Below, in pieces: positions 38,699 to 62,484 of a stretch of 64,000 bases of DNA. Source of the stretch: a virus (taxonomy: Duplodnaviria > Heunggongvirae > Uroviricota > Caudoviricetes); IMG/VR virus record IMGVR_UViG_3300042314_001251, positions 31,580 to 95,579 of that record; one strand, written 5' to 3'. How positions within the stretch are numbered: the stretch's first letter is position 1; every line of letters starts with the position of its first letter. Below the pieces are notes generated by a model, which saw only the letters and a list, made by a program, of their open reading frames with translations, did not search any database and had not been told where the DNA came from. The position numbers and the translations under genes are program-made.

Positions 38699-39493
38699 AT
38701 GAAATATTTTTTTGAAATTAAAGAGATAGATAAAACTCTTGCTATAGAATTTGTACAAGAAAGACACTATTCAAAAGTAATGCCTAAATTAACCAAACAT
38801 TGGTTAGGTTGTTTTTTAAACAATGAGTTAGTTGGTGTTGTTACATTGGGGTGGGGGACACAACCCTTACAAACAATTAAAAAGTTATTCCCGAACTTAA
38901 AATCAGAGGATTATTACGAAATTGGTAAGATGTGTATGGATGATTCTATGCCTAGAAATTCAGAGTCACAGATGTTAGCTCAAGTAGTTAGATGGATGAA
39001 AACTAATTTACCTGAAAAGAAATTTCTTTATACATGGGCAGATGGAATTGTGGGTAAAGTTGGGTATGTGTACCAAGGGTCTAATTTTTATTATGGTAAT
39101 TTTATTTGGACCGATATCTACATATCACCTTTAGGGGAGAAAATACACCCAAGAAGTTCAAAAGCTTTATTGAAAGAAAATGCTGAATTTTCGGGTAAAG
39201 AAAAATTATTTTGGATGACCCCTGATTTTATAAAAATAAAAGGTATTCGTAGAATTAGAGGAAAACAATTTAGATATATATACCCCCTGAATAAAAAATC
39301 AAAAGAACTTTTAAGAAGAGAATCTACGGTAGTATGGAACAAAATATACCCAAAAGAAGTTGACCTGTTATGGAAAGAACAAAAAGGTAAAGGTGATTAT
39401 GTTTTATTAACGAGTAAACCTGAAATGAATTTAAGTGTTGTTGAATATAATCAAAACAATGTTAATGCACATAAAAAGTTAAAGAAATCTTAG
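38699..39493 (+). CDS. hypothetical protein, paralog B of the tandem pair
   Basis: Shared ~130-aa N-terminal domain with 37966..38697. Confidence 0.45.
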   Translation: MKYFFEIKEIDKTLAIEFVQERHYSKVMPKLTKHWLGCFLNNELVGVVTLGWGTQPLQTIKKLFPNLKSEDYYEIGKMCMDDSMPRNSESQMLAQVVRWMKTNLPEKKFLYTWADGIVGKVGYVYQGSNFYYGNFIWTDIYISPLGEKIHPRSSKALLKENAEFSGKEKLFWMTPDFIKIKGIRRIRGKQFRYIYPLNKKSKELLRRESTVVWNKIYPKEVDLLWKEQKGKGDYVLLTSKPEMNLSVVEYNQNNVNAHKKLKKS

Positions 39494-40413: not shown

Positions 40414-40650
40414 ATGGAACCAAAAAAACTTTTAAAAATACATAGTTTTTTATATGGTATAAATGAAATCTTAGGATATAAGGGTAATACTATTATAGAG
40501 ACTGATTATATCTACGCACCATATTTACCTATGTTTATAGAAGAAGATTTTAGACCTAGGCAAGGGATTGCTTCAAGGTATGCACGAAAAATCGTGAATA
40601 ACAATTTTTATGGGAGAGTTACACTTGGAGCCGATACGCAAAATACCTAA
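40414..40650 (+). CDS. hypothetical small protein
   Basis: 78-aa ORF. Confidence 0.4.
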   Translation: MEPKKLLKIHSFLYGINEILGYKGNTIIETDYIYAPYLPMFIEEDFRPRQGIASRYARKIVNNNFYGRVTLGADTQNT

Positions 40651-41035
40651 ATTTAATTTTGACAATTCAATAAATTTTAATTTTAATTCTTACACTGTTA
40701 ATGCGGGTGCAAGAACAATACGTGCAACATGGTCACCCGAATTAGCACAAGATTTACAAGCATACCACGGGATAGACGCTGAGGCTGAATTAACGAGGTT
40801 ATTATCTGAGGAATGGGCTAGAAGTATTGATAGAGAAATTATTAATACTCTTCTTGCTCAAGATTTAATAACCGTACAACCATTAGGCCGACCAATCGGT
40901 CATCTTTTTTATTTCGATTCCCAATACGAAACATTCGAACCTAAAGTTTATGACGATGGTTCTTGGAGTCTAAAAAATATTTTTGAAAGTTCCATTGGTT
41001 TTAAAATAGAAATATCCCCACATAAGTTTATTTAA
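40610..41035 (+). CDS. hypothetical protein
   Basis: ATG start, 41-nt overlap with upstream ORF in another frame. Confidence 0.4.
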   Translation: MGELHLEPIRKIPKFNFDNSINFNFNSYTVNAGARTIRATWSPELAQDLQAYHGIDAEAELTRLLSEEWARSIDREIINTLLAQDLITVQPLGRPIGHLFYFDSQYETFEPKVYDDGSWSLKNIFESSIGFKIEISPHKFI

Positions 41036-43788: not shown

Positions 43789-43862
43789 CGATGTGTATAT
43801 CAGTTGGTTAGATAGACACTCTGATAAGGTGTAGGTCGGAGGTTCGAGCCCTCCCACATCGA
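43789..43862 (+). tRNA. tRNA-Ile (anticodon GAT)
   Basis: Acceptor CGATGTG/CACATCG, anticodon arm ACACT-CTGATAA-GGTGT, T-arm GGAGG-TTCGAGC-CCTCC. Confidence 0.8.
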
Positions 43863-43890
43863 CAAAAAAGAAAAAGTTCTTTGATGTATT
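43861..43890 (+). repeat. 30-nt segment GACAAAAAAGAAAAAGTTCTTTGATGTATT, repeated with 3 differences at 60697..60725
   Basis: Direct repeat found by eye; follows a tRNA 3' end here and a hairpin at the second site. Confidence 0.55.
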
Positions 43891-43902
43891 GGTATTAGTA
43901 AT

Positions 43903-43975
43903 GACTCAGTAGCTCAATTGGTAGAGCTCCACACTGTTAATGTGGCCGTTACAGGTTCAAGTCCTGTCTGAGTCG
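43903..43975 (+). tRNA. tRNA-Asn (anticodon GTT)
   Basis: Acceptor GACTCAG/CTGAGTC, D-arm GCTCAATTGGTAGAGC, anticodon loop CTGTTAA, T-arm ACAGG-TTCAAGT-CCTGT. Confidence 0.8.
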
Positions 43976-44105
43976 CTGAGGTTGATTGGGGAATGATATA
44001 ACGTTAACGTGTCAGTAGTCGTGGTTATATCGGAGTTGTAACTGTCCGAGTAAAGCCAATCGTAAAAGGGGATGTCCACACAACCATCTTCCCCTTTCCT
44101 AACTT

Positions 44106-44186
44106 GGGAACTGAAAGTCGTTTGGATACGGCAGCGAAACTGTAAATTTCGTCCTCGCGGGAGTGGTTCGAGTCCACCAGGTCCCA
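44106..44186 (+). tRNA. irregular tRNA-Tyr-like (anticodon GTA; class II-type)
   Basis: Perfect anticodon arm CGAAA-CTGTAAA-TTTCG (as in bacterial tRNA-Tyr), T-arm AGTGG-TTCGAGT-CCACC, acceptor GGGAACT/AGGTCCC with one A-G mismatch and 4 nt instead of 2 between acceptor and D stem. Confidence 0.45.
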
Positions 44187-44254
44187 CAAAAAAAAATAAA
44201 TGTAATATAAGTGGATTTTAACTCTGTTTGTTATATTTATAATAAAAGAATATT

Positions 44255-44704
44255 ATGAAACAGAGAGAAGTTAAAATTACTGATGAAGAAATAAAGTTGG
44301 CATATGACAAATACGACACACTACATCAGGCATCCGCAGAATTAAAAATGACTACTGTGTCATTATGGAGAAGGGCAAAAAAAATTGGTTTAGCCTGGAA
44401 AGATAAAAACTTTAAACCTGAACAACAAAAAATACCTTTAAACGAGATTATAGAAGGTAAACATCCGTACTACCAAACCTTAAAATTAAAAAAAAGGTTA
44501 TTGAAAGAAGGGGTTAAAGAAAATAAGTGTGATATTTGCGGTATAATAGATTGGAATAATATAGAGTTATCAATGCAATTAGACCATATTGATGGTGACT
44601 CACACAACCACAAATTGGATAATTTAAGGATGGTTTGCCCTAACTGCCATTCACAAACAAACACTTATTGTGGTAAAAATAAAAAAATCAAAGCGGAAAT
44701 TTGA
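44255..44704 (+). CDS. HNH homing-endonuclease-like protein
   Basis: CDICG...LDHIDGDSHNHKLDNLRMVCPNCHSQ (HNH with CxxC...CxxC zinc site). Confidence 0.7.
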   Translation: MKQREVKITDEEIKLAYDKYDTLHQASAELKMTTVSLWRRAKKIGLAWKDKNFKPEQQKIPLNEIIEGKHPYYQTLKLKKRLLKEGVKENKCDICGIIDWNNIELSMQLDHIDGDSHNHKLDNLRMVCPNCHSQTNTYCGKNKKIKAEI

Positions 44705-44734
44705 AAACAACATGTCTTCCTGTATATTTTATAC

Positions 44735-44806
44735 GCGTCTTTGGTGTAATTGGTAGCACGGCTGGTTCCAACCCAGTCGGTCAGGGTTCGAGGCCTTGGG
44801 GATGTG
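44735..44806 (+). tRNA. tRNA-Trp (anticodon CCA)
   Basis: D-arm GTGT-AATTGGTA-GCAC, anticodon arm GCTGG-TTCCAAC-CCAGT, T-arm CAGGG-TTCGAGG-CCTTG; acceptor GCGTCTT/GGGATGT pairs only with four G-U wobbles. Confidence 0.6.
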
Positions 44807-44811
44807 CAAAT

Positions 44812-44884
44812 GGTGATGTAGCTCAGTTGGTAGAGCAAAGGACTGAAAATCCTTGTGTCGAAGGTTCAATTCCTTCCATCACCA
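44812..44884 (+). tRNA. tRNA-Phe (anticodon GAA)
   Basis: Acceptor GGTGATG/CATCACC, D-arm AGCTCAGTTGGTAGAGC, anticodon arm AAGGA-CTGAAAA-TCCTT, T-arm GAAGG-TTCAATT-CCTTC; CCA follows. Confidence 0.85.
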
Positions 44885-44891
44885 CCATTAT

Positions 44892-44966
44892 AGGGTAATG
44901 GACTAATTGGCAAGTCACCACGTTTGGGACGTGGGCATCGTGAGAGTTCGAGTCTCTCTTACCCTA
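44892..44966 (+). tRNA. tRNA-Pro (anticodon TGG)
   Basis: Acceptor AGGGTAA/TTACCCT, anticodon arm CCACG-TTTGGGA-CGTGG, T-arm GAGAG-TTCGAGT-CTCTC. Confidence 0.7.
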
Positions 44967-44974
44967 CTATACAA

Positions 44975-45047
44975 TGTCCTATGGTGTAATTGGCAACACG
45001 TCGGTTTTTGGTACCGAAGAGTCGAGGTTCGAACCCTTGTGGGACAA
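44975..45047 (+). tRNA. tRNA-Gln (anticodon TTG)
   Basis: U1-A72 acceptor TGTCCTA/TGGGACA, D-arm GTGT-AATTGGCA-ACAC, anticodon arm TCGGT-TTTTGGT-ACCGA, T-arm CGAGG-TTCGAAC-CCTTG. Confidence 0.75.
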
Positions 45048-45131
45048 CAATATGGTGTTTGAAGCATTAAGGTGATGTACTAGTTTGTGGGACTAGGAAA
45101 GACGGGTCGGTACCGTCCTTACACCCAAAAA

Positions 45132-45218
45132 GGAAAGGTGGGTGAGTGGCTAAAACCAACAATCTGCTAAGTTGTCGTACCTGTAAGGGTACCGAGGGTT
45201 CGAATCCCTCCCTTTCCT
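45132..45218 (+). tRNA. tRNA-Ser (anticodon GCT; class II, long variable arm)
   Basis: Acceptor GGAAAGG/CCTTTCC, anticodon arm ACAAT-CTGCTAA-GTTGT, variable hairpin GTACC..GGTAC, T-arm GAGGG-TTCGAAT-CCCTC; CCA follows. Confidence 0.8.
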
Positions 45219-45224
45219 CCATAT

Positions 45225-45296
45225 GTGGATGTGATGTAACGGTTAACATGAGACTCTTATACAGTCTTCTCGGTGGTTCAACTCCACCCATCCATA
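45225..45296 (+). tRNA. tRNA-Ile (anticodon TAT, would decode AUA)
   Basis: Acceptor GTGGATG/CATCCAT, D-arm ATGT-AACGGTTA-ACAT, anticodon arm AGACT-CTTATAC-AGTCT, T-arm GGTGG-TTCAACT-CCACC. Confidence 0.7.
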
Positions 45297-45301
45297 CTAT
45301 T

Positions 45302-45375
45302 ACACTCTTAGCTCAATGGATTAGAGCACAACGTTACGGACGTTGGGGTTGGTGGTTCGAGTCCATCAGAGTGTA
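45302..45375 (+). tRNA. tRNA-Arg (anticodon ACG)
   Basis: Acceptor ACACTCT/AGAGTGT, D-arm GCTC-AATGGATTA-GAGC, anticodon arm CAACG-TTACGGA-CGTTG, T-arm GGTGG-TTCGAGT-CCATC. Confidence 0.8.
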
Positions 45376-45384
45376 CAATAATAA

Positions 45385-45455
45385 GGCACCATGCCCGAGT
45401 GGTTAGGGGTCGGTCTGCAAAACCGCTTACATTGGTTCGAACCCAATTGGTGCCT
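45385..45455 (+). tRNA. tRNA-Cys (anticodon GCA)
   Basis: Acceptor GGCACCA/TGGTGCC with U73 discriminator, anticodon loop CTGCAAA, T-arm ATTGG-TTCGAAC-CCAAT. Confidence 0.75.
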
Positions 45456-45538
45456 CTATCTTTAATTTCTTTTATATTCAATATAGGCCCAAACACCAAC
45501 AAATATTGGGGTTAGTATAGCAATAACTATTTCTGTAT

Positions 45539-47746
45539 TCATCGCATAATTGTTAAATGTCCTGTTATCATTTTACGTGAGTCATCATACTCAGACCCAT
45601 ACATTATTCTCCAAACATAAATCCCATCAAAACACATTTTATTATTATAAGTACCATCCCAACCAACGGTATGATTGTATGATTCAAAAATTGTTTCACC
45701 CCATCTATTGAATACCAATAAATTATAATCATAGACATCAAACCCATCAGTAAATATTGGTAACCAAATATTGTTGAAAGCATCACCATCGGGGGTAAAT
45801 GTATTAGGTATATAAATTAATTCTTGTGGACATTCTTGTATTGCTATATTAGCTTGTTCTTCATTAGAAACACAACCATTAACCGTTTGGGAAACGCTAA
45901 TTGTATAAAAACCAACATTATTCCAAACATAAGGTAAACTATTATCTTGTATTGTATCACCTTCAACAACCCAATCAAACAACCCAGATAAAGATGAATA
46001 AGCTGTATAGATTCTAAAAATACTATCACCTTCACAAAGTTGGTTAAATTCATATGAAGGTGTTACAGATGTTATGATTGGTTGTGGGTTTACAATAACG
46101 TTGATTGTTGTATCAAATGGGCAATTACTTTGTGTATATGTATAAGTTACATCATTGTTTGTTATGATACCTTGTTGTGGGCAAAATTCATCAGTCTGAA
46201 CCCCATTGACTAAGAAAGTACCATTTAAAGGTGAACCCACTAAATCTACACAACCATCATAATCACAAAAAGGACCAATAGGGTCTATTGTAGGGTTTAT
46301 GTTTAAAATAAATGTAGTGAAGTAAGAGGTATCACTATTACAACCAATAGGACTAGTAGAATAAACACTTATAGAGTCTTGATATAAACCACTAGGTTCT
46401 AATGACCAATCCGTTGTTATATTATCAGTACCTTGACCATTTATTATTTGTGGTGTTGTAGACCATATGTAGTTGTAACCAACACCCATAGAAGGTACAC
46501 TATAACTTTCTGATGTTGATAAATAACATACCGTATCAGGACCACTAATAGGTGTCATTATTATTTGTGCTGGGTTAGTGAGTGTTGCATTACCTGTTAC
46601 GGTACAACCTATACCGTCTGTAATTAAAAAACTATAATTACCATAACAAAGGTTAGTGGGGTTAAAAGTTGTTTGTAGAGTATTCCAAGAAATAGTAGTG
46701 ACACCATTGGTTCCGTTAGGGATTACATTAATACTACCATCACAATAGTTATAACAAGTTGGGTCAATAAAAGTAATTGTAGGTTGTGGTAAGTTAGGTG
46801 GACCAGGTTGTACAAACACCGTATCAGGTCCTGGACCGGCAATACTATTACAAGTATTCCATCCAACATTACAAGAAGGATATACTAGTTGACAAGTATA
46901 ATTAGCTCCTTGTACAGGTGGTGTAACCGTAATGGACGCACCAACCCCAATTGGATTTGGGTTACCTACAATATACCATGTTGGTACAGGTAAAACAGTT
47001 GGTCCACTTGGAGTGTATCGGTACGCATCATTATTTGCTGTCCATTGTGTGGAATTCCTACCTGGTACAGTTATCGCCACGGTTCCTGTGGTATTATGTA
47101 ATCCTTGAACCGCGGTACCTCCCGCCCAAGCTAGACAGTTTGGTTTTGATTGAATATAATTTTCTATTACGTTTGTTGATTCATAAATCACTGTATGAAA
47201 TGTCCCCAGTAAATTTGTACATGAAAACATAGGGACACCAACCCAACTAACAACTAATTTTCTACAAGGTGCTGTACCTTGAACTTGGTACCTAATTTGC
47301 CCACCTAAACCTGGGTGCCAATCTTGCCAAGGACCCATGACACAATTTTTTGGTACTGTACCCGCACCATTAGGTATTGTTGCTGAAGTAAATGTTGTTG
47401 GTTGTGCCGGTGAAAAAGAAATCCAACCGTTAGAACCAACCCAAAATTGATTGTATGTTTGTCCAAAGAAACAAAATGTAAACCCAATATTAAAAGGACC
47501 TTGTTGTGAATCATCCGACATAAATAATTGTGTACCAGTATTTGTTTGTGTTACATAAGGAATATTTGTAACACCGTAGTTTGTTGTTTGATTTGGATTT
47601 GAACCTGGTCCACATTGACTAAAATCGGCAGTTAATGTTGTTGACCCAACACCACAAGGTAGTATTTGGTCTGGTCCTAAATAAGGACAGTATTGTGAAT
47701 AGGTCACAAAAGAAATTAGTATAAAAAGGTATTTAATTAAGTTCAT
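45539..47746 (-). CDS. secreted Cys-rich protein with T9SS type-B C-terminal sorting domain (gliding-motility-associated CTD)
   Basis: N-terminal signal peptide MNLIKYLFILISFVTYSQ; C-terminus IPNTFTPDGDAFNNIWLP...FNRWGETIFES...GWDGTYNNK...GIYVWRI...GHLTIMR matches the T9SS type-B CTD pattern (PNxFTPNGDGxND..F...RWG..VF...WDG...G.Y.Y......G.v.l.R); 735 aa, G/P/T/N/C-rich. Confidence 0.7.
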   Translation of the reverse strand: MNLIKYLFILISFVTYSQYCPYLGPDQILPCGVGSTTLTADFSQCGPGSNPNQTTNYGVTNIPYVTQTNTGTQLFMSDDSQQGPFNIGFTFCFFGQTYNQFWVGSNGWISFSPAQPTTFTSATIPNGAGTVPKNCVMGPWQDWHPGLGGQIRYQVQGTAPCRKLVVSWVGVPMFSCTNLLGTFHTVIYESTNVIENYIQSKPNCLAWAGGTAVQGLHNTTGTVAITVPGRNSTQWTANNDAYRYTPSGPTVLPVPTWYIVGNPNPIGVGASITVTPPVQGANYTCQLVYPSCNVGWNTCNSIAGPGPDTVFVQPGPPNLPQPTITFIDPTCYNYCDGSINVIPNGTNGVTTISWNTLQTTFNPTNLCYGNYSFLITDGIGCTVTGNATLTNPAQIIMTPISGPDTVCYLSTSESYSVPSMGVGYNYIWSTTPQIINGQGTDNITTDWSLEPSGLYQDSISVYSTSPIGCNSDTSYFTTFILNINPTIDPIGPFCDYDGCVDLVGSPLNGTFLVNGVQTDEFCPQQGIITNNDVTYTYTQSNCPFDTTINVIVNPQPIITSVTPSYEFNQLCEGDSIFRIYTAYSSLSGLFDWVVEGDTIQDNSLPYVWNNVGFYTISVSQTVNGCVSNEEQANIAIQECPQELIYIPNTFTPDGDAFNNIWLPIFTDGFDVYDYNLLVFNRWGETIFESYNHTVGWDGTYNNKMCFDGIYVWRIMYGSEYDDSRKMITGHLTIMR

Positions 47747-47838
47747 TTTTTTTTTATTTATAAATATAATATTAAGACGTATTTAAATGTAAATAGAAGG
47801 AACACTTATCCCAAAAGGTGGGATTGGAGAATATCTAG

Positions 47839-47846
47839 TACTTTTG
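47839..47846 (+). promoter_or_regulatory. -7-like box TActTTTG about 44 nt upstream of ATG 47890
   Basis: Exact TAnnTTTG. Confidence 0.35.
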
Positions 47847-47889
47847 GCTTATTTTTTAAATTTACGATTAAATAGAATATTTATATTAT

Positions 47890-48639
47890 ATGAAGTTAAT
47901 TAGAGAATTCGATGATTTTAGTTGGACTAATATGGGTACACTTAATCCGTTTATGAGTGATGACCCACTTGTTGTTGTATGGTTAGATAAATCTGCCACT
48001 GAATCAGAGATTAATAAATTATATGATATGCTTTTGGAAGTTAATATAGAAATTAGTACATCAAAGTCAGATTTTGTAAAAAGTTTATTAACATATTCTA
48101 GAAATGGGTCTGCATATGTTAAATCTTACATAGCTCAAAATGGTGAAAAAAGAGCTGGGTATGGTGATACAAAAGCTTTATTTGATGAACATAAATATTG
48201 GAAAGCTATGGAAGATTTAGACGGTAAACCATATATAGAATATAAATTAGGTGATATCTTTAAAGATAGATTAAATGAGTCTGAAGAGTTAAATTGGATT
48301 ATAGAAAGTAACCCATCATTTAGAAACAAGATAATTATTTTTGAACCACTGATTATTGAGGATGAGTATAATATTGTTATAGATGGTTTATTAGAATTTG
48401 ATGAGGACCTTTATACCTATAGTGGTAATTTAGAAGAATTAAGACCTTTCACTTCTTATGATTATTTACACCATTTAGTTATAGGTTTAAATGGTGTAGT
48501 AGCTTATGGTGGGGCCAATGAACATAACAACGAAGACTGGGGTGGTTTTATGGATAACGTAGAAAATTACATAGGTAATTATTATAAAAATTTTAACAAC
48601 CCAGAAGTTATTGATGGAAGAAAATATTTTAATCTTTAA
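47890..48639 (+). CDS. hypothetical protein
   Basis: 249-aa ORF preceding the kinase genes. Confidence 0.5.
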   Translation: MKLIREFDDFSWTNMGTLNPFMSDDPLVVVWLDKSATESEINKLYDMLLEVNIEISTSKSDFVKSLLTYSRNGSAYVKSYIAQNGEKRAGYGDTKALFDEHKYWKAMEDLDGKPYIEYKLGDIFKDRLNESEELNWIIESNPSFRNKIIIFEPLIIEDEYNIVIDGLLEFDEDLYTYSGNLEELRPFTSYDYLHHLVIGLNGVVAYGGANEHNNEDWGGFMDNVENYIGNYYKNFNNPEVIDGRKYFNL

Positions 48640-48663
48640 TAACTCCAATTAATACTTATTGAT

Positions 48664-50589
48664 ATGGATAAAAATTTTTACATTAATAAATTAAATAAAA
48701 CTTTAATTTCACAAACACATAACCCTCTTTTTTATAAAGGGGATATAGTAGAAGGTTCTAAAATTCTAACTAAAGAAGTTGTAGACTCAATTAATGTTGA
48801 TAGATGTTCTATATGGTTATACAACAAAAATAAAACATCTATTGTTTGCCAACAATTATATGTTAAATCTGAAAATATGTGGTATGATGGTTTAGAAATC
48901 TTTGAAAAGGATTTTGGACCGTATTTCGAAGAATTAATAAAGAACCCAATAATAATAGCTAATGATGCTGAAAAACATCCAGCAACATCTTGTTTTACTG
49001 ATGGTTATTTAAAACCACTGGGTATTAAATCTATGTTAGATGTACCTATCATTTATTTTGGGGAAACTATTGGTGTTATATGTATTGAAAGTTTTACATT
49101 ACGTGAATGGGATTCTTTTGAGGTTGATTTTACTCAATTATTATCTTCTTTATACACTTTTGCTTATTCAATAAAAGAAACAAACAATTTAAATAAAAAA
49201 ATAGAAGAAACAGAAAAATTTATTGACGTATCGACAATTATATCTACTGCTGATAAAAGAGGTAAAATTACATATGTTAATAAAAAATTTGAGGATGTTT
49301 CTGGGTGGTCTTTGGATGAGGTAGTTGGTAAAGACCATGTTATTGTTAATTCGGGATTACAACCTGATGGATATTGGGGTAAAATGTATGAAACGGTAAT
49401 GAAAGGTGATGTATGGAATGACGTTGTTACCAATAAAGGAAAATCAGGAGAATTATATTACGTTGATACTTTTATTAGAGCAATTTTTGATACCGATGGT
49501 AAATTGGATGGATTTGCTTCAATAAGACAAGATGTTACAGAACTTAAAAAAAAGGAAGTTGAAATTCGCAATAGAATGAACGCGATAAATAAATCTAACG
49601 CAGTTATTGAGTTTGATTTAGAAGGAAACATCATTTTTGCTAATAATTTGTTTTTAGAAACTATGGGATATTCTTTACAGGATGAAGTAGTTGGAAAACA
49701 CCATAGAATTTTTATAGATGAGGAATACTCAAAAAGTGAAGAATACTCTCTTTTTTGGGAAAAATTAAATGAAGGGGTGTTATTTACCGGTGAAATTACT
49801 AGAATTAAAAAAGACGGTTCTTTAGTGTATCTACAAGCAACATACAATCCAGTTATCGGTTTAGATGGTAAGGTTTATCGTGTTATGAAAATCGCGACAG
49901 ATATCACCAATTCCTACGAACAAAAGAAAGAAATTGAAAAGAAAAACACTTACCTAGAACATGCGGCTAAAATATTAAGACACGATATGCATTCAGGTAT
50001 TAATACTTATATGCCAAGAGGATTAAGTTCTTTAGAAAGAAGATTAACCCCCGAAGATATTAAAACTTTAAAAATTGAGGCCCCAATTAAAATGATTAAA
50101 GAGGGTTTAAAACATTCCCAAAAAGTATATAAAGGGGTTTACGAATTTACAAATCTTGTAAAGAAAGATGTTGTTTTAAATAAAACGGAATGTAATTTAA
50201 AAGATATACTTGAGGATTATTTATCAGCGACAGCATATAGTAGTCAAGTTATTATTGATGAGTTACCAACGATAGAAGTTAATGAACCATTATTCTGTAC
50301 CGCAGTCGATAATTTAATTCGTAATGGGTTAAAGTATAATGATAGTAATACAAAATTTGTTAAAATATATATGGAAGATGGTAATCTAATTATACAAGAC
50401 AACGGTAGAGGGATTACACAAAAAGATTTTATTCATTTATCCCAACCATATACCAGAAAAGAAGGCCAAAAAGAATCTGGAACTGGTCTAGGGCTTAATA
50501 TATGTGTAGCTATTTTAGAAGAACATAAATTTAATATTTCGTGTGAGAAAAATGACATAGGGACAAAAATGAAAATTGAACTAAAATGA
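48664..50589 (+). CDS. cytoplasmic sensor histidine kinase: GAF - PAS - PAS - variant DHp (H-box RHDMHSGI) - HATPase_c
   Basis: GAF-like N-terminus (CSIWLY...DVPIIYFGETIGVICIES); two PAS-like segments (GKITYVNKKFEDVSGWSLDEVVGKDH; GNIIFANNLFLETMGYSLQDEVVGKHH); H-box EHAAKILRHDMHSGINTY; N-box DNLIRNGLKYN, G1 DNGRGI, G2 GTGLGLNI. Confidence 0.7.
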   Translation: MDKNFYINKLNKTLISQTHNPLFYKGDIVEGSKILTKEVVDSINVDRCSIWLYNKNKTSIVCQQLYVKSENMWYDGLEIFEKDFGPYFEELIKNPIIIANDAEKHPATSCFTDGYLKPLGIKSMLDVPIIYFGETIGVICIESFTLREWDSFEVDFTQLLSSLYTFAYSIKETNNLNKKIEETEKFIDVSTIISTADKRGKITYVNKKFEDVSGWSLDEVVGKDHVIVNSGLQPDGYWGKMYETVMKGDVWNDVVTNKGKSGELYYVDTFIRAIFDTDGKLDGFASIRQDVTELKKKEVEIRNRMNAINKSNAVIEFDLEGNIIFANNLFLETMGYSLQDEVVGKHHRIFIDEEYSKSEEYSLFWEKLNEGVLFTGEITRIKKDGSLVYLQATYNPVIGLDGKVYRVMKIATDITNSYEQKKEIEKKNTYLEHAAKILRHDMHSGINTYMPRGLSSLERRLTPEDIKTLKIEAPIKMIKEGLKHSQKVYKGVYEFTNLVKKDVVLNKTECNLKDILEDYLSATAYSSQVIIDELPTIEVNEPLFCTAVDNLIRNGLKYNDSNTKFVKIYMEDGNLIIQDNGRGITQKDFIHLSQPYTRKEGQKESGTGLGLNICVAILEEHKFNISCEKNDIGTKMKIELK

Positions 50590-51200
50590 TAAAACTAAAA
50601 AATTTATTAACCATATTTTTCATAAGTATGGTAAGTATAGTGTATTCACAACCAACCTACCCTATCCAGACACAATTAAAAGGTGATTCTGTGGTTATTC
50701 TTACAAAAAAACAATCTGATGATATTAATTCACTAATTGAGAATCAAAAAATTAGAATACAAAAATATAAAACAGAAATAAAATTAGTTAATGATACTAA
50801 CACGTTATTAAATAACGATATTAAAATAAAAGATAGTGTTATTAACCAATTGGATAGTTTGTTAACCGTCCAAAACAATTATTACGATAGTTTAATTTCT
50901 AAAATAGATACGTTAGAGAATTGGATTTTATCGTCGTCGATAGATAATGGGTACCTATATTATTCTTGGCAAGACTCAACAGTTAAAGTTATTGATTTAA
51001 GTTTGTATATGTTAGTATCGCATAGAGGAAGTGGTAATTATAGTTTAATTACAAGAGGTGATGTTACTAATATATATTATTGGAAACAAATAAATCTACT
51101 TAAAGAAGAAAGTCCTGAGATTGGTTGGGAATTAAATATATCCCCAAAATATAAACCAAGAATAGTATTATTCCCATATAAATTAACCCCAAAATTATGA
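50586..51200 (+). CDS. secreted/periplasmic hypothetical protein (signal peptide)
   Basis: N-terminus LLTIFFISMVSIVYSQ; ATGA overlaps with both flanking kinase genes. Confidence 0.5.
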   Translation: MIKLKNLLTIFFISMVSIVYSQPTYPIQTQLKGDSVVILTKKQSDDINSLIENQKIRIQKYKTEIKLVNDTNTLLNNDIKIKDSVINQLDSLLTVQNNYYDSLISKIDTLENWILSSSIDNGYLYYSWQDSTVKVIDLSLYMLVSHRGSGNYSLITRGDVTNIYYWKQINLLKEESPEIGWELNISPKYKPRIVLFPYKLTPKL

Positions 51201-52600
51201 TAAAAAATATTTTAATAACAATAATGTTTTTGGGTTTTTTTACTTCTTTAAATGTAAATTCACAGACTGATAATAACCCCAAAAAAACAGAGATTGAACC
51301 TACATGTCCTAGTGATAGTCGTATAACTAGTTTAATTAAAAAATTAAATTACGAACCAAATAAAAAATTAACTAAATACCAATCAAGCTTATGTCAAGAA
51401 ATTGGTATCTCTTTTTATAATAAAGGTATGTATGATGAGTCAGATTGGTATTTAGATAAGGTTAGTACCTATATTGATGTTGTTGATTTAAAACCTGAAA
51501 AAGTTTTTGACACACCTAAAGAAGAACCCGTACAAGAGTTAAGTGACTCAGAATTATCTAGTATTAAAGCCGACCAAAAATTTTTAGATGACCTACCAAA
51601 ATCATACGATAATTTATCTAAAAAAGATATAAAAAAAATTGCTGATGAGATAGAGTCAAAACTCCAAAAACTATTAAAAGAAAAAAAAGAATTATTAAAA
51701 AATAAAGCTAGTCAAGAAGTTATCAGTTCTAAAACAAGTACTATACAAATATTAGGTAAAGAAAAAAATATCATTAATCTTAGTGTTAAAAATGATGATT
51801 TAGTTACCGATAAAAAAACCTTAAAAAAATATTTATGGTGGTCCACAATTGTTCTTTCTGTTTTGGTTTTAGGTATTATTGTTTTATTACAAAGAAAAAC
51901 AATTAAAGTCCAAGACATAGAAATCGAAAACCAATTAAAAGACATTAACAAGAAAAACACTTACCTTGAATATGCGGCTAGAATAATTAGACACGACATG
52001 CATTCAGGTATTAACACCTATATACCAAGAGGGTTATCGTCATTAGAAAAAAGAATTTCAATTGAGGAAATGAATAACTTAAAAATTACACCCTCAATTA
52101 AAATGATAAAAGATGGTTTGGCACACACACAAAAAGTATATAAAAGTGTTTATGAGTTTACAAACCTTGTGAAAAATACTGTAGTTTTAGATAGAAATAT
52201 GGTTGATATAAAAGAATCTTTATTAAAATACTTAACAAATACATCATATAAAAATCAGGTAGAAATTAGTGAATTAGTTACACTAAATGTAAATGAAACT
52301 CTTTTTTGGAACGCTATTGATAATTTAATTAAAAATGGGTTAAAATATAATAGTAGTGAAAATAAAGAAATTAAAATTTACATGGATAATAATGATTTAA
52401 TTATTGAAGATAATGGTGTTGGATTTTCACAAAAAGAGTTCGAAAGAACAACAGGTGAATATTTAAATAAAAAGAGTAATTCCGAAGTTGGTTTAGGTTT
52501 AGGTATAACCAAAACAATTTTAGAAGAACATGGTTTTAGTATGATGTGTGAAAAAATTAACACTGGTACAAAAATAACGGTTAAATTAAATAAAAATTAA
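51197..52600 (+). CDS. membrane sensor histidine kinase (signal peptide/periplasmic domain - TM - DHp - HATPase_c), paralogous kinase core to 48664..50589
   Basis: Signal peptide ILITIMFLGFFTSLNVNSQ; TM YLWWSTIVLSVLVLGIIVLL; H-box EYAARIIRHDMHSGINTY; N-box DNLIKNGLKYN; G-boxes EDNGVGFS, GLGLGI. Confidence 0.65.
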   Translation: MIKNILITIMFLGFFTSLNVNSQTDNNPKKTEIEPTCPSDSRITSLIKKLNYEPNKKLTKYQSSLCQEIGISFYNKGMYDESDWYLDKVSTYIDVVDLKPEKVFDTPKEEPVQELSDSELSSIKADQKFLDDLPKSYDNLSKKDIKKIADEIESKLQKLLKEKKELLKNKASQEVISSKTSTIQILGKEKNIINLSVKNDDLVTDKKTLKKYLWWSTIVLSVLVLGIIVLLQRKTIKVQDIEIENQLKDINKKNTYLEYAARIIRHDMHSGINTYIPRGLSSLEKRISIEEMNNLKITPSIKMIKDGLAHTQKVYKSVYEFTNLVKNTVVLDRNMVDIKESLLKYLTNTSYKNQVEISELVTLNVNETLFWNAIDNLIKNGLKYNSSENKEIKIYMDNNDLIIEDNGVGFSQKEFERTTGEYLNKKSNSEVGLGLGITKTILEEHGFSMMCEKINTGTKITVKLNKN

Positions 52601-52607
52601 AAAAAAA

Positions 52608-53045
52608 ATGATTGATTCTATATTATTAGTTGATGACGAGGATTTATTCCATTTAGTATTTGAGGATGCGTGTTCCTTATTAGATATAAGTTTGTCTTTA
52701 AACGCGTTAAACAGTTCTGACGAAGCAGCAAAACTATTCCAAAAATGGTTCCAAAGTGGTAATGAAGACAATAAACCAGAATGTGTTTTTGTTGACTTAA
52801 ATATTATTGGTAGTTCTTTTGATGGTATTGAGTTAATTAGAAAAATAAACTTTGAATATGGTAACCATGTGGTTATTGGTATAATTTCATCGTCTAATGA
52901 ACCAGATGAACAAGCTAAAGCATTACAAGCTGGAGCACAGTTTTGGATTATTAAATCAGACGATATAGAACCAAGACTAGAAGAATTTAGAAAAGATTAC
53001 GAAGGTTATAAAAATAGAACCGCACCATTTAAAGTTTACAAATGA
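52608..53045 (+). CDS. stand-alone response-regulator receiver domain (CheY-like)
   Basis: ILLVDDED (acidic pair), VFVDLNI (phospho-acceptor Asp), GIISSS, IIKSD (Lys). Confidence 0.6.
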   Translation: MIDSILLVDDEDLFHLVFEDACSLLDISLSLNALNSSDEAAKLFQKWFQSGNEDNKPECVFVDLNIIGSSFDGIELIRKINFEYGNHVVIGIISSSNEPDEQAKALQAGAQFWIIKSDDIEPRLEEFRKDYEGYKNRTAPFKVYK

Positions 53046-53719
53046 TTAAAATAGAAAGTTTTACTAAAAAAAGTTTAATAGATTTATATAAAGAAAAAAA
53101 TGTAGGTCTTGAGGGTAATATCACAAAATTAATTGATTCTGAGGATGATGAAGAATTTAAAGATTATTTAAAAGATTGTGAATTAAGAGATACCGAAAAA
53201 AGGAAGAAGCGTCTTGATATGACAAAAAAAATACAAAAACAAAATCAAGAACTATCTAATTTAAATAATGAAAACGAAAGAATTCTAGAAGAATTACAGG
53301 AAACTTTAAAAGACGTTGAGGATTCCAAGTTGACGTATGAGGTTCAGAATAAGGAACTTAATGAGTGGAAAGAAGATAACCTTAGATTAACTGAAGAGTT
53401 AAAAAATGAAATGGCTAAATCTGAAAAGGCTAGAATAGATGCGGAAAAAGCTAAAGATATGGCCGAAAACGATTTAGATTTATTACAAAAAAGAACTCAA
53501 AATGAACTAATCTCCACCATTGTTAGAGTTGCTCTATGGATAATCATGGGTGTGGGTTTTGTAACAACTGGTGTTTATGTCTTCACATTATTAATGGGCA
53601 AAGACACTCAAGTTATTAGTGCTACTTGGTCTAACATATTTGGTATTCTATTAACAAATGCATTTTCTATTGTAGGTACCATTATGGGTATAAAATACGC
53701 AACAGAAAAAAAAGAATAA
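53042..53719 (+). CDS. coiled-coil protein with C-terminal double TM anchor
   Basis: Heptad-rich E/K/L region; C-terminal VALWIIMGVGFVTTGVYVFTLLM and FGILLTNAFSIVGTIMGI. Confidence 0.5.
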   Translation: MIKIESFTKKSLIDLYKEKNVGLEGNITKLIDSEDDEEFKDYLKDCELRDTEKRKKRLDMTKKIQKQNQELSNLNNENERILEELQETLKDVEDSKLTYEVQNKELNEWKEDNLRLTEELKNEMAKSEKARIDAEKAKDMAENDLDLLQKRTQNELISTIVRVALWIIMGVGFVTTGVYVFTLLMGKDTQVISATWSNIFGILLTNAFSIVGTIMGIKYATEKKE

Positions 53720-53983: not shown

Positions 53984-54073
53984 GGAAGGGTGGCAGAGTT
54001 GGTCTATTGCATCTGATTTGAAATCAGAAGTACCTTTGAAAGGGTACCGTGGGTTCGAATCCTACCTCTTCCT
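53984..54073 (+). tRNA. tRNA-Ser (anticodon TGA; class II)
   Basis: Acceptor GGAAGGG/CTCTTCC, anticodon arm TCTGA-TTTGAAA-TCAGA, variable hairpin GTACC..GGTAC, T-arm GTGGG-TTCGAAT-CCTAC. Confidence 0.8.
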
Positions 54074-54080
54074 CATAAAT

Positions 54081-54152
54081 GGTCCATTGGTGTAGTGGCC
54101 AACATACATCCCTGTCACGGATGTGCCGCGAGTTCGATTCTCGCATGGACCG
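54081..54152 (+). tRNA. tRNA-Asp (anticodon GTC)
   Basis: Acceptor GGTCCAT/ATGGACC, anticodon arm CATCC-CTGTCAC-GGATG, T-arm GCGAG-TTCGATT-CTCGC. Confidence 0.8.
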
Positions 54153-54193
54153 CAACTAACCATAAATCCTAGTAACCCCTAGGTTGGTTAAAC

Positions 54194-54266
54194 AGTTCCT
54201 TAGCTCAGCTGGGAGAGCAACTCGCTTACATCGAGAAGGTCACAGGTTCGAACCCTGTAGGAACTA
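54194..54266 (+). tRNA. tRNA-Val (anticodon TAC)
   Basis: Acceptor AGTTCCT/AGGAACT, D-arm GCTC-AGCTGGGAG-AGC, anticodon loop CTTACAT, T-arm ACAGG-TTCGAAC-CCTGT. Confidence 0.75.
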
Positions 54267-54275
54267 CAATAAATT

Positions 54276-54350
54276 GCCTCATTAGCTCAGCTGGCTTAGA
54301 GCGTCTGATTTGTACTCAGAAGGCCGTGGGTTCGATTCCTACATGAGGCT
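54276..54350 (+). tRNA. tRNA-Thr (anticodon TGT)
   Basis: Acceptor GCCTCAT/ATGAGGC, D-arm GCTC-AGCTGGCTTA-GAGC, anticodon arm TCTGA-TTTGTAC-TCAGA, T-arm GTGGG-TTCGATT-CCTAC. Confidence 0.8.
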
Positions 54351-54412
54351 CAATTAATAACAAACAAATAAAAACGTCAGATTATGGAAAGTGGCAAGTA
54401 TGGCAAACACAA

Positions 54413-54484
54413 TCCCTCGTAGCAAACAAGTGTAGGCAACGGACTTTTAATCCGTGGGGCTGGGAGCGTTACCCGGCGGGGGAA
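54413..54484 (+). tRNA. degenerate tRNA-like element (72 nt) with TTT (Lys) anticodon arm; possible pseudo-tRNA
   Basis: 7-bp acceptor TCCCTCG/CGGGGGA; anticodon arm ACGGA-CTTTTAA-TCCGT; T-arm-like CTGGG-AGCGTTA-CCCGG with non-consensus loop; no convincing D-stem. Confidence 0.3.
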
Positions 54485-54492
54485 CAAAACAC

Positions 54493-54562
54493 ACCGAGGC
54501 TTAGTGGTAAAGAACTATCTCTCATAAGGATGGTCAAGTGGGTTCAATTCCCATACTCGGTA
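54493..54562 (+). tRNA. tRNA-Met (anticodon CAT; loop CTCATAA)
   Basis: T-arm GTGGG-TTCAATT-CCCAT, acceptor ACCGAGG/ACTCGGT (one mismatch at the stem base), anticodon arm TATCT-CTCATAA-GGATG (two G-U). Confidence 0.55.
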
Positions 54563-54570
54563 CATTATAT

Positions 54571-54641
54571 TGCGGCAAGGTGTAATTGGTTGCATGGGAG
54601 TCTCATAAACTTCAGGGGTGGTTCGAGTCCACAGCACGCTA
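54571..54641 (+). tRNA. irregular CAT-anticodon tRNA-like element (possible tRNA-Ile2/Met pseudogene)
   Basis: D-arm GTGT-AATTGGTT-GCAT, anticodon arm GGAGT-CTCATAA-ACTTC, T-arm GGTGG-TTCGAGT-CCACA, but the 3' strand GCACGCT has no complementary 5' acceptor strand. Confidence 0.3.
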
Positions 54642-54646
54642 CTAAT

Positions 54647-54721
54647 GGGGATATAGTTTAATTGGCTAAAACATCTGATTTGCATTCAGAAGATGTCTCG
54701 GTTCGATTCCGAGTATCTCCA
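54647..54721 (+). tRNA. tRNA-Ala (anticodon TGC)
   Basis: Acceptor GGGGATA/TATCTCC with the G3-U70 Ala identity pair, anticodon arm TCTGA-TTTGCAT-TCAGA, T-arm CTCGG-TTCGATT-CCGAG. Confidence 0.8.
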
Positions 54722-54918
54722 CAATAAAATAACAAAAGAAAAAGAAAGAAATTAATGAAGATAGTGTTAACAGGTAAATTAGAATCACATAGAGAAATTT
54801 TTAGAGGAGAAAGAGAAAAAAATAAATTGATTAAAAGAATAAAAAAATTTATTTTTAAAAGAAAAAACGCTTAATAGAACAAAGTACAAGTTCAGGGTGG
54901 GGTGCGGTTCCCACAAAT

Positions 54919-54992
54919 GCGGGTGTAGCTCAATTGACTAGAGTACTAGCCTTCCAAGCTGGGAGTTGCGGGTTTGAATCCCGCCACCCGCT
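54919..54992 (+). tRNA. tRNA-Gly (anticodon TCC)
   Basis: Acceptor GCGGGTG/CACCCGC, D-arm GCTC-AATTGACTA-GAGT, anticodon arm CTAGC-CTTCCAA-GCTGG, T-arm GCGGG-TTTGAAT-CCCGC; CCA follows. Confidence 0.8.
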
Positions 54993-54996
54993 CCAT

Positions 54997-55079
54997 ACGT
55001 CAGTGGCGGAATTGGTAGACGCGTTGGTTTTAGGAACCAATATCGTTAAGATGTGGGGGTTCGACTCCCCCCTGACGTA
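54997..55079 (+). tRNA. tRNA-Leu (anticodon TAG; class II)
   Basis: Acceptor ACGTCAG/CTGACGT, D region GCGGAATTGGTAGACGC, anticodon arm TTGGT-TTTAGGA-ACCAA, long variable arm, T-arm GGGGG-TTCGACT-CCCCC. Confidence 0.8.
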
Positions 55080-55109
55080 CTTTTATTTTGCCAATTAAAC
55101 AATAACCCT

Positions 55110-55122: not shown

Positions 55123-55818
55123 ATGAAAAAATTAACCTTTATTAGTGACACACACACCAAACACGAGAAACTTAACGGTTTTCTTCCTGGTGGTGATATG
55201 TTAATCTGTGCTGGTGATATCACTAGTAGAGGTTATAAAACTGAAATTGAAAATTTTCTTAAGTGGTTTGATAAAATTGATAACTATGACCACAAAATTT
55301 TCATAGCAGGTAATCACGACTTTGGTTTCCAAGACCAACCTAATGAAACTAAAGGTTTGTTAACTGGTTATAAAACAGTTGAATATTTACAAGACGAACT
55401 TTTATTGGTTGGTGATGAGGATTATGACGATATGGTTAAAGTTTGGGGTACTCCTTGGCAACCTGAATTTCATAATTGGGCATTTAACTTACCAAGAGGA
55501 CAAGCTTTAAAAGAGAAGTGGGATATGATAACAGTTGGTACTGACATTCTTATCACTCACGGACCACCATTTGGCAAATTGGATTACGTAAAATACCCAA
55601 ATCAAAATGTTGGTTGTGAAGAACTAATGAAACGAGTTGAAGTAATCAAACCAAAAATTCACGTATTTGGACACATCCACGAAGGTTATGGTTATGTGTT
55701 TGATGGAAATACTCACTACATTAACGCAGCTGTGTTAAATGGACGATATGAGTTCCGCAATAAACCTGTGAATGTTTTATGGGATAAAAACACAAATCAT
55801 TTGGAATTTGTTGATTAA
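55123..55818 (+). CDS. calcineurin-like metallophosphoesterase
   Basis: FISDTH, GDITSRG, GNHDF, HGPP, GHIHEG motif series. Confidence 0.65.
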   Translation: MKKLTFISDTHTKHEKLNGFLPGGDMLICAGDITSRGYKTEIENFLKWFDKIDNYDHKIFIAGNHDFGFQDQPNETKGLLTGYKTVEYLQDELLLVGDEDYDDMVKVWGTPWQPEFHNWAFNLPRGQALKEKWDMITVGTDILITHGPPFGKLDYVKYPNQNVGCEELMKRVEVIKPKIHVFGHIHEGYGYVFDGNTHYINAAVLNGRYEFRNKPVNVLWDKNTNHLEFVD

Positions 55819-55823
55819 TAGGT

Positions 55824-55831
55824 TATCTTTG
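55824..55831 (+). promoter_or_regulatory. -7 box TAtcTTTG, 5 nt upstream of ATG 55836
   Basis: Exact TAnnTTTG. Confidence 0.5.
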
Positions 55832-55835
55832 TGGT

Positions 55836-56297
55836 ATGAATAAAGTAAAAATATATTTGGATGACATAAGAACTCCTAATGACAAAGATTGGTTGGTTGT
55901 TAGGAGTTTTTATGAATTTGTAGACTTAATAAATAAAGTTGGTTTGAATAACATCGAATTAATTTCATTAGACCATGACTTGGGTGATACTGCTATGAAT
56001 GAGTATTATAACAATGTTTCACCTAACTACAAATTAGATTATGAGAACATAGAAGAAAAAACTGGTTACGACGCGGTTAAATGGTTAGTTAATTTGTTTT
56101 ATTCTTTGAATGAACATAGAATCAACATGAGTAGGTCTGAGAAAAAAAGGGATAAAAATTTTTATTTCCCTAAAGTTGTGGTTCATTCAGCTAACCCAAT
56201 AGGTTCAGCTAATATCATGGGTTATATCAATAACTTTTTAATGAATGAAGGTAAATCACAAGATTGTATAAGAGTTAAAATTGAGTATTATGTATGA
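55836..56297 (+). CDS. hypothetical protein
   Basis: 153-aa ORF. Confidence 0.5.
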   Translation: MNKVKIYLDDIRTPNDKDWLVVRSFYEFVDLINKVGLNNIELISLDHDLGDTAMNEYYNNVSPNYKLDYENIEEKTGYDAVKWLVNLFYSLNEHRINMSRSEKKRDKNFYFPKVVVHSANPIGSANIMGYINNFLMNEGKSQDCIRVKIEYYV

Positions 56298-56417
56298 TAC
56301 TGAGGGACCAGAATTAACAAAACAACAAAAAAAAGATATTAAAAAAGTTGTTGACCGTTATCTTAGAATTAGATTCAAGAGAAGGGTTAGATTATTAATA
56401 GGATTAAAATTAAAATA

Positions 56418-56807
56418 ATGAAAGTTTCATTTGATTTTGATGGTACGCTTTCTCTTAAGAGTGTCCAAGAATACGCCAAAGATTTGGTGAGTAGGGGTTT
56501 AGATGTCCACATTGTTACTAGTAGACATAGTGATAAAGCAGCCAAAGAAGCTGGTTGGTGGTGGATATTGGACCAAAATAAAAATCTATTTAATGTTGCT
56601 CAAGAATGTGGTATTGATGAAAAAAATATTACCTTCACAAACGGAAGGGACAAGATAGAATATTTGAAAGGTAAAGACTTCAAATTTCATTTGGACGATG
56701 ACGAAATTGAATTAATGTTAATTTTTGAATCTGATGAAAAGTGTATGCCTTTGAACGTTGGTCATAGTGATTGGCGTGATAATTGTGAAACAGAAATTAA
56801 AAGTTAA
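56418..56807 (+). CDS. HAD-superfamily phosphatase-like protein
   Basis: Motif I VSFDFDGTLS (DxDGT), motif II HIVTSR. Confidence 0.45.
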   Translation: MKVSFDFDGTLSLKSVQEYAKDLVSRGLDVHIVTSRHSDKAAKEAGWWWILDQNKNLFNVAQECGIDEKNITFTNGRDKIEYLKGKDFKFHLDDDEIELMLIFESDEKCMPLNVGHSDWRDNCETEIKS

Positions 56808-56808
56808 T

Positions 56809-61184: not shown

Positions 61185-61245
61185 CTGTGAAATGAACAAC
61201 GTCACCACAAGAGTTGTACCTTTATGGTTTTATAATGTGGTATTT

Positions 61246-61317: not shown

Positions 61318-61400
61318 CAAAAGAGGTGGATACTTTGTACGTAGATAATTTAGTAATATCTTGTCGTAGTGCACCGTTGACGAAACCTCTTTTATTTTTG

Positions 61401-62469: not shown

Positions 62470-62484
62470 AAAAAATAAAAAATT

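Follow-up and report, generated by a model that had tools for sequence, protein, structure and literature searches.

Closest described systems

In the literature searched, phage-encoded proteins with a type IX secretion system (T9SS) C-terminal sorting domain (CTD) have one precedent, the 'Cryophage', a single phage with three hypervariable genes for type A CTD proteins; this was called a unique occurrence, and the authors put forward a hijack of the T9SS, with roles in competition or superinfection suggested (Bellas 2020, PMC7468147). Here, we describe another phage-borne cargo of this system, a 735-residue protein encoded on the minus strand of a stretch of 64,000 nucleotides (hereafter the window; IMG/VR record IMGVR_UViG_3300042314_001251, positions 31,580 to 95,579). 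Both cases have in common a T9SS sorting domain on a phage-encoded protein. However, the 'Cryophage' cargo has type A CTDs (PorV/PorU route), borne by enzymes and by a PA14 protein and hypervariable between variants, whereas the cargo of the window has a type B CTD (PorP/SprF route), an adhesin-like head on a stalk of immunoglobulin-like (Ig-like) domains, and belongs to a conserved single-clade family present in many phages. Searches for phage-borne type B cargo gave nothing beyond the type A case of Bellas 2020 in the literature covered, and the huge-phage paper behind the record LR745206 (Al-Shayeb 2020) mentions only generic surface-localized proteins, in agreement with an initial annotation of the window that had called the subject little explored. 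Our preferred reading, held with moderate confidence, is that the cargo is a phage-borne orphan type B substrate of the T9SS that would be anchored by a shuttle on the infected cell and would remodel its surface. What appears to be new is thus a widespread, conserved, putatively host-derived and shuttle-dependent family of type B surface proteins in large phages of Bacteroidota.

The behavior of type B substrates is best described in Flavobacterium johnsoniae. Type B cargo is anchored by a PorP-like outer-membrane protein, independently of PorU and PorV, and SprB is found bound to SprF (PMC9143113). Also, cargo and shuttle form specific pairs, similar CTDs can cross-talk, and the CTD/shuttle pairs specify the final location of putative adhesins after secretion (PMC12618676), the type B CTD being both a secretion and a targeting signal. 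Three orphan cargos, Fjoh_1123 together with Fjoh_1720 and Fjoh_4934, have one orphan shuttle in common, Fjoh_1677, which is encoded elsewhere (PMC12618676). The likeness of the phage cargo to these orphans and to the SprB/SprF pair would lie in its type B class, in being unlinked to a porP/sprF gene (as the orphans are), in a shuttle encoded elsewhere, and in PorP-like anchoring (PMC12618676, PMC9143113). Nonetheless, in F. johnsoniae both cargo and shuttle belong to the host and to one genome, whereas the phage cargo would be supplied in trans by the virus.

A type B sorting domain and a signal peptide in a phage protein

The initial annotation had recognized a type B CTD and an N-terminal signal peptide from sequence patterns. 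Both type B models match the protein above their curated cut-offs, PF13585 (CHU_C) with E = 2.5e-12 and 47.2 bits (cut-off 27; residues 645-732, profile positions 2-85 of 86) and TIGR04131 with E = 3.3e-11 and 43.2 bits (cut-off 35; residues 645-735, profile positions 2-85 of 85), this being a near-full-length match placed at the extreme C-terminus. Moreover, TIGR04131 is matched by all 59 aligned family members (E ≤ 0.001), and no other CTD model is. The type A model (TIGR04183) is absent from an NCBIfam scan of the cargo at E ≤ 1, which gives TIGR04131 alone, and none of the 59 relatives matches a type A model at E ≤ 0.001. A search of the six-frame translations (--max) with a hidden Markov model of the phage CTDs finds no second CTD gene in the window.

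A comparison of the last 100 residues with chromosomal type B CTDs gives 47-56% identity for the closest ones, which come mostly from Crocinitomicaceae loci (L006, L025, L027, and L079, with L026 labeled Flavobacteriales); for one of these close CTDs, the body of the chromosomal cargo is unrelated. The identity to other Bacteroidia CTDs is about 34%. This nearness to Crocinitomicaceae CTDs points to the host lineage and to the shuttle that the protein would use.

The signal peptide was judged from its pattern and its conservation. The N-terminus has a basic residue (K5), a hydrophobic stretch and then the sequence ..TYS|QYCP, with K or R at position 2-3 in nearly all relatives. The leader pattern is kept in 62 of 62 distinct phage copies, and the Gln at the predicted cleavage site, which precedes Y/F-C-P, is invariant. 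In the AlphaFold2 model, residues 2-14 form a helix, followed by a low-confidence linker. Signal peptidase I substrates of Bacteroidota follow a 'Q-rule', and the invariant Gln at the end of the leader matches it. By its sequence, the cargo is therefore a bona fide type B T9SS CTD protein with a signal peptide, as first annotated.

The window itself is part of a large T4-like phage. In Pfam scans of 76 open reading frames (ORFs), the matches comprise, among others, a fragment of the Gp23 major capsid protein, two Mom proteins, Phage_lysozyme, RNase HII, and a sigma factor, and PHROG assigns a primase, an SbcC-like nuclease, and two families confined to phages. Also, window proteins match those of T4-like cyanophages, huge metagenomic phages (LR7565xx), and Tenacibaculum jumbo phages, and 23 transfer RNA (tRNA) genes are found in three clusters, all on the plus strand (ARAGORN). 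Homologs of 25 of the 91 window genes occur in the flanks of cargo-bearing IMG/VR loci, whereas this is the case for only 3 of the 91 in bacterial loci. Phage encoding, assumed in the initial annotation, is in this way well supported. The exact 735-residue protein, whose public name is 'gliding motility-associated-like protein', is present on nine public contigs of up to 252 kb, with the same gene neighbors wherever the DNA is available.

A conserved head on an Ig-like stalk

The structure prediction that the initial annotation had called for gives, from a 59-sequence alignment, an all-beta protein (AlphaFold2, mean predicted local distance difference test [pLDDT] of 83.5) composed in order of the signal helix, a head, about four Ig-like domains, and the CTD. 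Modeled alone, the head reaches a pLDDT of 86 and a predicted template modeling score of 0.81, and it is the best-conserved part of the protein, with a column identity of 0.83. The stalk is the most variable region. For the whole protein, the only Pfam matches at E ≤ 1 are CHU_C, PKD_6, and a chance match to Toxin_4, PKD_6 being borderline at residues 397-449 (26.2 bits, cut-off 25), and no PHROG family is matched (best E = 0.3). A NIDO domain (PF06119) was considered for the head on the basis of a motif, GFxFCFFGQxY..VGSNGWISF, and found no Pfam support at E ≤ 1.

The body is indeed rich in Thr, Gly, Asn, and Pro, as initially described. However, the CxxC and CxC spacings reported with that description do not exist; the 25 Cys lie 4-81 residues apart. 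Twenty-two of them are conserved in at least 90% of the copies, and these conserved Cys fit an oxidizing, extracytoplasmic destination. Across 65 pairs of phage copies, the median ratio of nonsynonymous to synonymous substitution rates (dN/dS, Nei-Gojobori) is 0.146 and the maximum 0.27, values that reflect purifying selection; the head and the CTD each stand at 0.12 and the stalk at 0.19. Thus, the sorting domain is as constrained in phages as the most conserved part of the protein.

The best structural matches in the Protein Data Bank (PDB; Foldseek, E = 2e-15 to 1e-9) are the Ig repeats of GhpA from Aureispira (PDB code: 9flp and related entries), a T9SS-secreted filament of tandem Ig-like domains anchored in the outer membrane. 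However, the match covers generic Ig repeats only, at 13-20% identity, and the phage head has no counterpart in GhpA, which with about 5000 residues forms hooks for predation.

This anatomy bears on what the protein would do once exported. With its conserved head at the distal end, its Ig-like stalk, and its type B CTD, the protein has the architecture of surface adhesins such as SprB-class proteins and GhpA, and the strong conservation of the head suggests an invariant ligand over an arms-race interface. By the same export route, the cargo might then serve adhesion or behavioral manipulation, altering gliding or the sticking to particles, algae, or cells, a possible but rather unlikely purpose in our estimate; for example, the virocell could be kept inside a dense host patch, so that progeny meet new hosts. 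In support of this, SprB binds SprF (PMC9143113) and CTD/shuttle pairs set the destination of adhesins (PMC12618676). Nonetheless, the cargo itself has no significant SprB repeats, it is speculative that a lytic phage would profit from this during one infection cycle, and the sequence data do not separate adhesion from exclusion. Membership in the SprB class of gliding adhesins proper was rejected, the cargo lacking a match to the SprB repeat (PF13573) at E ≤ 1, having just 735 residues, and no sprF-like gene being found; some relatives do carry SprB and PKD_6 repeats.

A phage family with bacterial ancestry

With a cut-off of E ≤ 1e-5, a protein search found 1380 relatives, over 100 of them about 735 residues long and 58-100% identical to the cargo. 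Matching stretches number 133 in IMG/VR, and 75 loci were found in GTDB genomes, nearly all labeled Bacteroidota. Among 50,697 GenBank phage records, two match, both metagenomic phages, LR745206 (634 kb) and LR756502 (642 kb); in the former, only the cargo gene matches the window within ±15 kb. Viral and chromosomal loci differ in character. The viral ones hold many small genes and have a G+C content (GC) of about 30-34%, reaching 40% in a few, whereas those in metagenome-assembled genomes (MAGs) have 33-52% GC and housekeeping genes (UvrD-like helicase, GH3, glycosyltransferases, E2 acyltransferases). Phage copies are 731-770 residues long, with variants of 817 and 660, whereas chromosomal copies mostly have about 1040 and often stand in tandem with other type B cargo genes.

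The Bacteroidia homologs of about 1040 residues (for example L018, L013, and L023), together with L006, share with the phage cargo the signal peptide, the Cys-rich head (about 40-65% identity), a stalk of the Ig/PKD/SprB-repeat type, and the type B CTD. However, the bacterial homologs are about 300 residues longer, with more stalk repeats, and are found among housekeeping genes, in some lineages with a PorP/SprF gene a few genes away, whereas the phage copies are compact (about 735 residues), AT-adapted, and have no partner gene nearby. In a neighbor-joining tree built on the shared head region, all phage copies fall in one clade, whose sisters are short MAG copies (L007 and L008) and then the 1040-residue clade. 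Nested within the phage clade is L006, an 849-residue copy from Crocinitomicaceae that is genuinely chromosomal, its flanking genes being 57-74% identical to other Bacteroidota loci. These comparisons suggest that the phage family is a shortened derivative of a chromosomal Bacteroidia surface protein of about 1040 residues. Moreover, the closest bacterial homolog and the closest CTDs come mostly from Crocinitomicaceae (Flavobacteriales), which is most likely the host family.

Three loci with Bacteroidota-type cargo genes bear other labels, Akkermansia for L019 and L030 and Competibacteraceae for L007, which is probably a binning or labeling error. Also, further type B CTD proteins without this head, of 832, 1670, and 1347 residues (Table 1), were observed on phage contigs, including LR745206 and LR756502, so phage-borne type B cargo extends beyond this family.

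Genomic context and mobility

The initial annotation had remarked on the strand and composition of the gene and had read its flanks, a tRNA cluster and an HNH endonuclease, as typical of horizontally acquired cargo. About 92% of the coding sequence of the window lies on one strand, and the cargo gene is, as claimed, the only long one on the opposite strand (the sole minus-strand gene above 250 residues; three shorter plausible ones have 131, 114, and 213). The gene is also less AT-rich than its neighbors, with 35.3% GC against a mean of 30.4% for the other genes (z = 1.5, 7th of 74). However, this modest excess is confined to codon position 2 (46% versus 30%) and reflects amino acid composition, whereas GC at codon position 3 (GC3) is 18.5% against a window mean of 21.0%. 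GC3 is phage-like in 52 other phage loci as well, which argues for long residence in phage genomes. As for the flanks, an 11-gene tRNA cluster does end 82 nucleotides from the stop codon, whereas the HNH-like ORF (44255-44704) is inside this cluster and scores 19.6 bits, under the Pfam threshold of 21.4.

A recent passenger without any adapted function for the phage, whether a bacterial gene lately caught at a tRNA/HNH hotspot or the product of a chimeric assembly, would account for the strand, for the abutting tRNA cluster with its HNH-like ORF, and for the total GC above that of the neighbors. Nonetheless, such an origin is highly improbable and largely refuted by the low GC3, by the identical protein with the same neighbors on nine independent contigs, by 133 IMG/VR relatives in a phage clade under purifying selection, and by the linkage of the adjacent kinase module to the cargo in other phage lineages. 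The varied, co-directional contexts of the relatives likewise speak against a recent island.

Indeed, 64 of 68 phage loci have the homolog on the majority strand, and the minus-strand, tRNA-flanked placement is peculiar to the phage lineage of the window: a relative with 82% identity lacks it, and this relative and another with 70% identity have co-directional copies in yet other neighborhoods. An invertible segment was considered for the opposite orientation and discarded, no credible inverted repeats flanking the gene.

Upstream of the cargo, and divergent from it, a 249-residue gene without Pfam, PHROG, or NCBIfam match is followed by a two-component module composed of a GAF-PAS-PAS histidine kinase (641 residues), a 204-residue ORF without a family match, a second histidine kinase (467 residues), a receiver-only regulator (145 residues), and a 225-residue ORF. 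In four related loci (L081 and L132-134), the order on one strand is cargo, kinase(s), receiver-only regulator, 225-residue gene, and endolysin; there, the 249-residue gene is absent and the cargo abuts the kinase gene. The window differs from this arrangement by the inversion of the cargo and the insertion of the 249-residue gene. A comparison of L132-134 with window positions 45539-53045 shows 93-94% identity for the regulator and 81% for the kinase but only 46-47% for the cargo, so the cargo either turns over faster than its neighbors or was swapped. Phages that are otherwise close relatives may thus exchange their cargo alleles.

Of 74 related phage loci, 27 have the cargo within the tail module, on the same strand and flanked by the sheath/tube genes and the tape-measure gene; its median distance past the tube gene is 74 bp. 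In nine related loci, an endolysin gene is located downstream of it. Tail and lysis regions are common insertion sites of phage morons such as lambda lom and bor, and the contexts seen here follow the pattern of a mobile, moron-like accessory gene. The tail module is also where a structural gene is expected, and this location keeps alive, as a weak rival, the idea of a virion component, a tail fiber or decoration whose Ig domains and head would act in adsorption and whose signal peptide and CTD would be relics or serve a use outside the T9SS. We consider this quite improbable. The signal peptide and the CTD are present in every copy, the latter under the same constraint as the head; cytoplasmic folding is hard to square with some 22 conserved Cys; no PHROG structural family is matched; and the head is conserved, unlike the hypervariable tips of receptor-binding proteins. 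Moreover, in the window and in many relatives the cargo is far from structural genes, near tRNAs, signaling genes, or an endolysin, and tail and lysis regions are classic moron sites.

Other features of the window

The intergenic region upstream of the cargo gene has an A-rich leader without a Shine-Dalgarno sequence (Table 1), as is typical of Bacteroidota. A sigma-70-like TTTACA-16-TATTAT element (47793-47766) does not exceed shuffled expectation in a scan that does not model Bacteroidota promoters, and intrinsic terminator signals show no excess over shuffled expectation.

A second sub-threshold HNH-like ORF (61541-62146) is located within another tRNA cluster of the window. Directly past the second tRNA cluster, at 55123-57384 (+), a set of genes resembles an RNA-repair kit, with a phosphoesterase of the Metallophos family (55123-55818), a receiver for cyclic-phosphate processing (cREC_REC, 55836-56297), and a 'Swiss Army Knife' RNA-repair domain (HAD_SAK_2, 56758-57384). 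Two Mom-family paralogs of 243 (81 bits) and 264 residues (186 bits) stand side by side at 37966-39493 (+). The T4-type Gp23-like capsid pieces are in an odd order, a C-terminal-like piece at 40468-40620 (+) preceding a middle piece at 40670-40855 (+); aligned to the L120 protein, the first corresponds to residues 452-508 and the second to residues 269-330 (Pfam Gp23, 79 bits). These could be split or degenerate capsid paralogs or an interrupted gene. Finally, Pfam matches between 176 and 28447 include DruA (a Druantia defense domain), SIR2, a complete sigma-70 factor (regions 1.2, 2, and 4), Phage_lysozyme, Amidase_2, and a YadA_head repeat; the defense-type domains may represent counter-defense or captured genes.

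Table 1. Positions of the cargo gene, its parts, and the surrounding features; coordinates are those of the window, except in the last three rows, which refer to other phage contigs.
Feature	Position	Strand	Basis or remark
Complete cargo gene, 735 residues, ATG start	45539..47746	-	ORF list; stop codon 45539-45541
Signal peptide, residues 1-17, MNLIKYLFILISFVTYS	47696..47746	-	Predicted signal peptidase I cleavage before Q18
Conserved head, residues 19-315	46802..47692	-	Beta-sandwich core (about residues 55-230) and one Ig-like subdomain; 11 invariant Cys
Stalk of about four tandem Ig-like/PKD-like domains, residues 316-640	45827..46801	-	PKD_6, AlphaFold2, Foldseek
T9SS type B CTD, residues 645-735	45542..45814	-	PF13585, TIGR04131
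Upstream divergent intergenic region, 143 bp	47747..47889		A-rich leader AAAAAAAAAATG; no Shine-Dalgarno sequence
Divergent 249-residue gene	47890..48639	+	Only in this phage lineage; between cargo and kinase module
Two-component module	48664..53719	+	Pfam; linked to cargo in several phage lineages
11-gene tRNA cluster at the 3' side of the cargo gene	43789..45456	+	ARAGORN; context, outside the cargo system
Other tRNA clusters	53984-55080, 61102-62899	+	
Head-less type B CTD gene, L001	4303-6801	-	
Head-less type B CTD gene, L002	6050-11062	+	
Head-less type B CTD gene, L116/L117	2556-6599	+	

Shuttle partner, mechanism, and purpose

PorP/SprF relatives were sought by jackhmmer, seeded with a protein of a bacterial locus verified by TIGR03519 (222 bits), and were found in four bacterial loci. 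None was found in the six frames of the window or in the flanks of the viral loci, so the phage protein would act as an orphan reliant on a host shuttle, and since orphan cargos exist in F. johnsoniae (PMC12618676), a missing linked shuttle does not bar membership in the type B class. No T9SS or gliding component appears among the matches listed from the Pfam scans of the 76 window ORFs (for the second batch, 25 of the 28 families).

The gene and its domains, its setting in a phage, its conservation, the selection on it, and its ancestry come directly from the analysis, whereas export, anchoring via a host shuttle, host identity, and purpose are inferred as follows. The protein would be made in an infected Bacteroidota cell, most likely of the Crocinitomicaceae, carried over the inner membrane by Sec, and cut by signal peptidase I before Gln18. 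It would then fold with its disulfides in the periplasm, and the host T9SS translocon would recognize the C-terminal type B domain and hand the protein over to a host outer-membrane shuttle of the PorP/SprF type, so that it stays anchored at the cell surface. There, a highly conserved, putatively host-derived head would be displayed on a short stalk made up of some four Ig-like domains. The purpose may be a remodeling of the infected-cell surface in which the cargo replaces or competes with host type B surface proteins, among which, in flavobacteria, are phage receptors; superinfection would thereby be limited, and fewer progeny would be lost to cell debris. Flavobacterial mutants in T9SS and gliding show broad phage resistance, and SprB and RemA are considered receptors (PMC9804748). 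Because phage sensitivity in flavobacteria depends on T9SS and gliding genes, surface remodeling by masking or competition would be the most economical purpose, although an adhesive or behavioral role is equally compatible with the anatomy.

Several observations weigh against this preferred reading. Neither motif search nor jackhmmer revealed a PorP/SprF gene in the six-frame translation of the window or in the flanks of the phage loci, and the reported CTD/shuttle pairing is highly specific (PMC12618676), so the use of a host shuttle is an assumption. The head has no recognized fold relative or ligand, and nothing specific favors exclusion over other surface roles; the functions put forward in the initial annotation, exclusion, masking, and adhesion among them, are at this stage guesses. 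Also, the tail-module placement of related copies fits a structural gene, the host assignment follows from protein similarity only, the ancestry comes from one neighbor-joining tree, which carries no support values, and, out of the 252 kb or more of the genome, the window covers only 64 kb.

A variant of surface remodeling, which we regard as unlikely, would place exclusion in the secretion system itself: a host-matched CTD would saturate the PorP/SprF shuttles and T9SS sites and thereby displace the receptor adhesins, any binding by the head being unneeded. If so, the infected cell and its debris would be non-adsorbing, and competition within the secretion system would be used as superinfection exclusion.

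Exported accessory products that act in the host envelope, blocking receptors or altering the surface, are known from enterobacterial phages, examples being T5 Llp, phi80/N15 Cor, and lambda Lom and Bor, and their genes are often inserted in tail or lysis regions. By analogy, the cargo would work like these products, exclusion by the cargo being only a proposal. However, Llp, Cor, Lom, and Bor are small lipoproteins or beta-barrels that use Sec, Lol, or Bam and not the T9SS, and they have no homology to the cargo.

T9SS substrates have so far been treated as part of the cellular repertoire. The family described here implies that large phages of freshwater Bacteroidota would routinely put a protein of their own on the host surface through the secretion and anchoring machinery of the host. 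Since type B anchoring needs specific PorP/SprF shuttles, the phage CTD would double as a host tag, here pointing to Crocinitomicaceae, and CTD/shuttle specificity could be read from phage CTDs as from a natural experiment. The hosts are probably uncultured. Moreover, as phage sensitivity in flavobacteria is linked to surface proteins of the T9SS and of gliding, a virus placing its own protein on this surface would be relevant to superinfection exclusion, and also to receptor dynamics and to the differences between virocells and uninfected cells in lakes.

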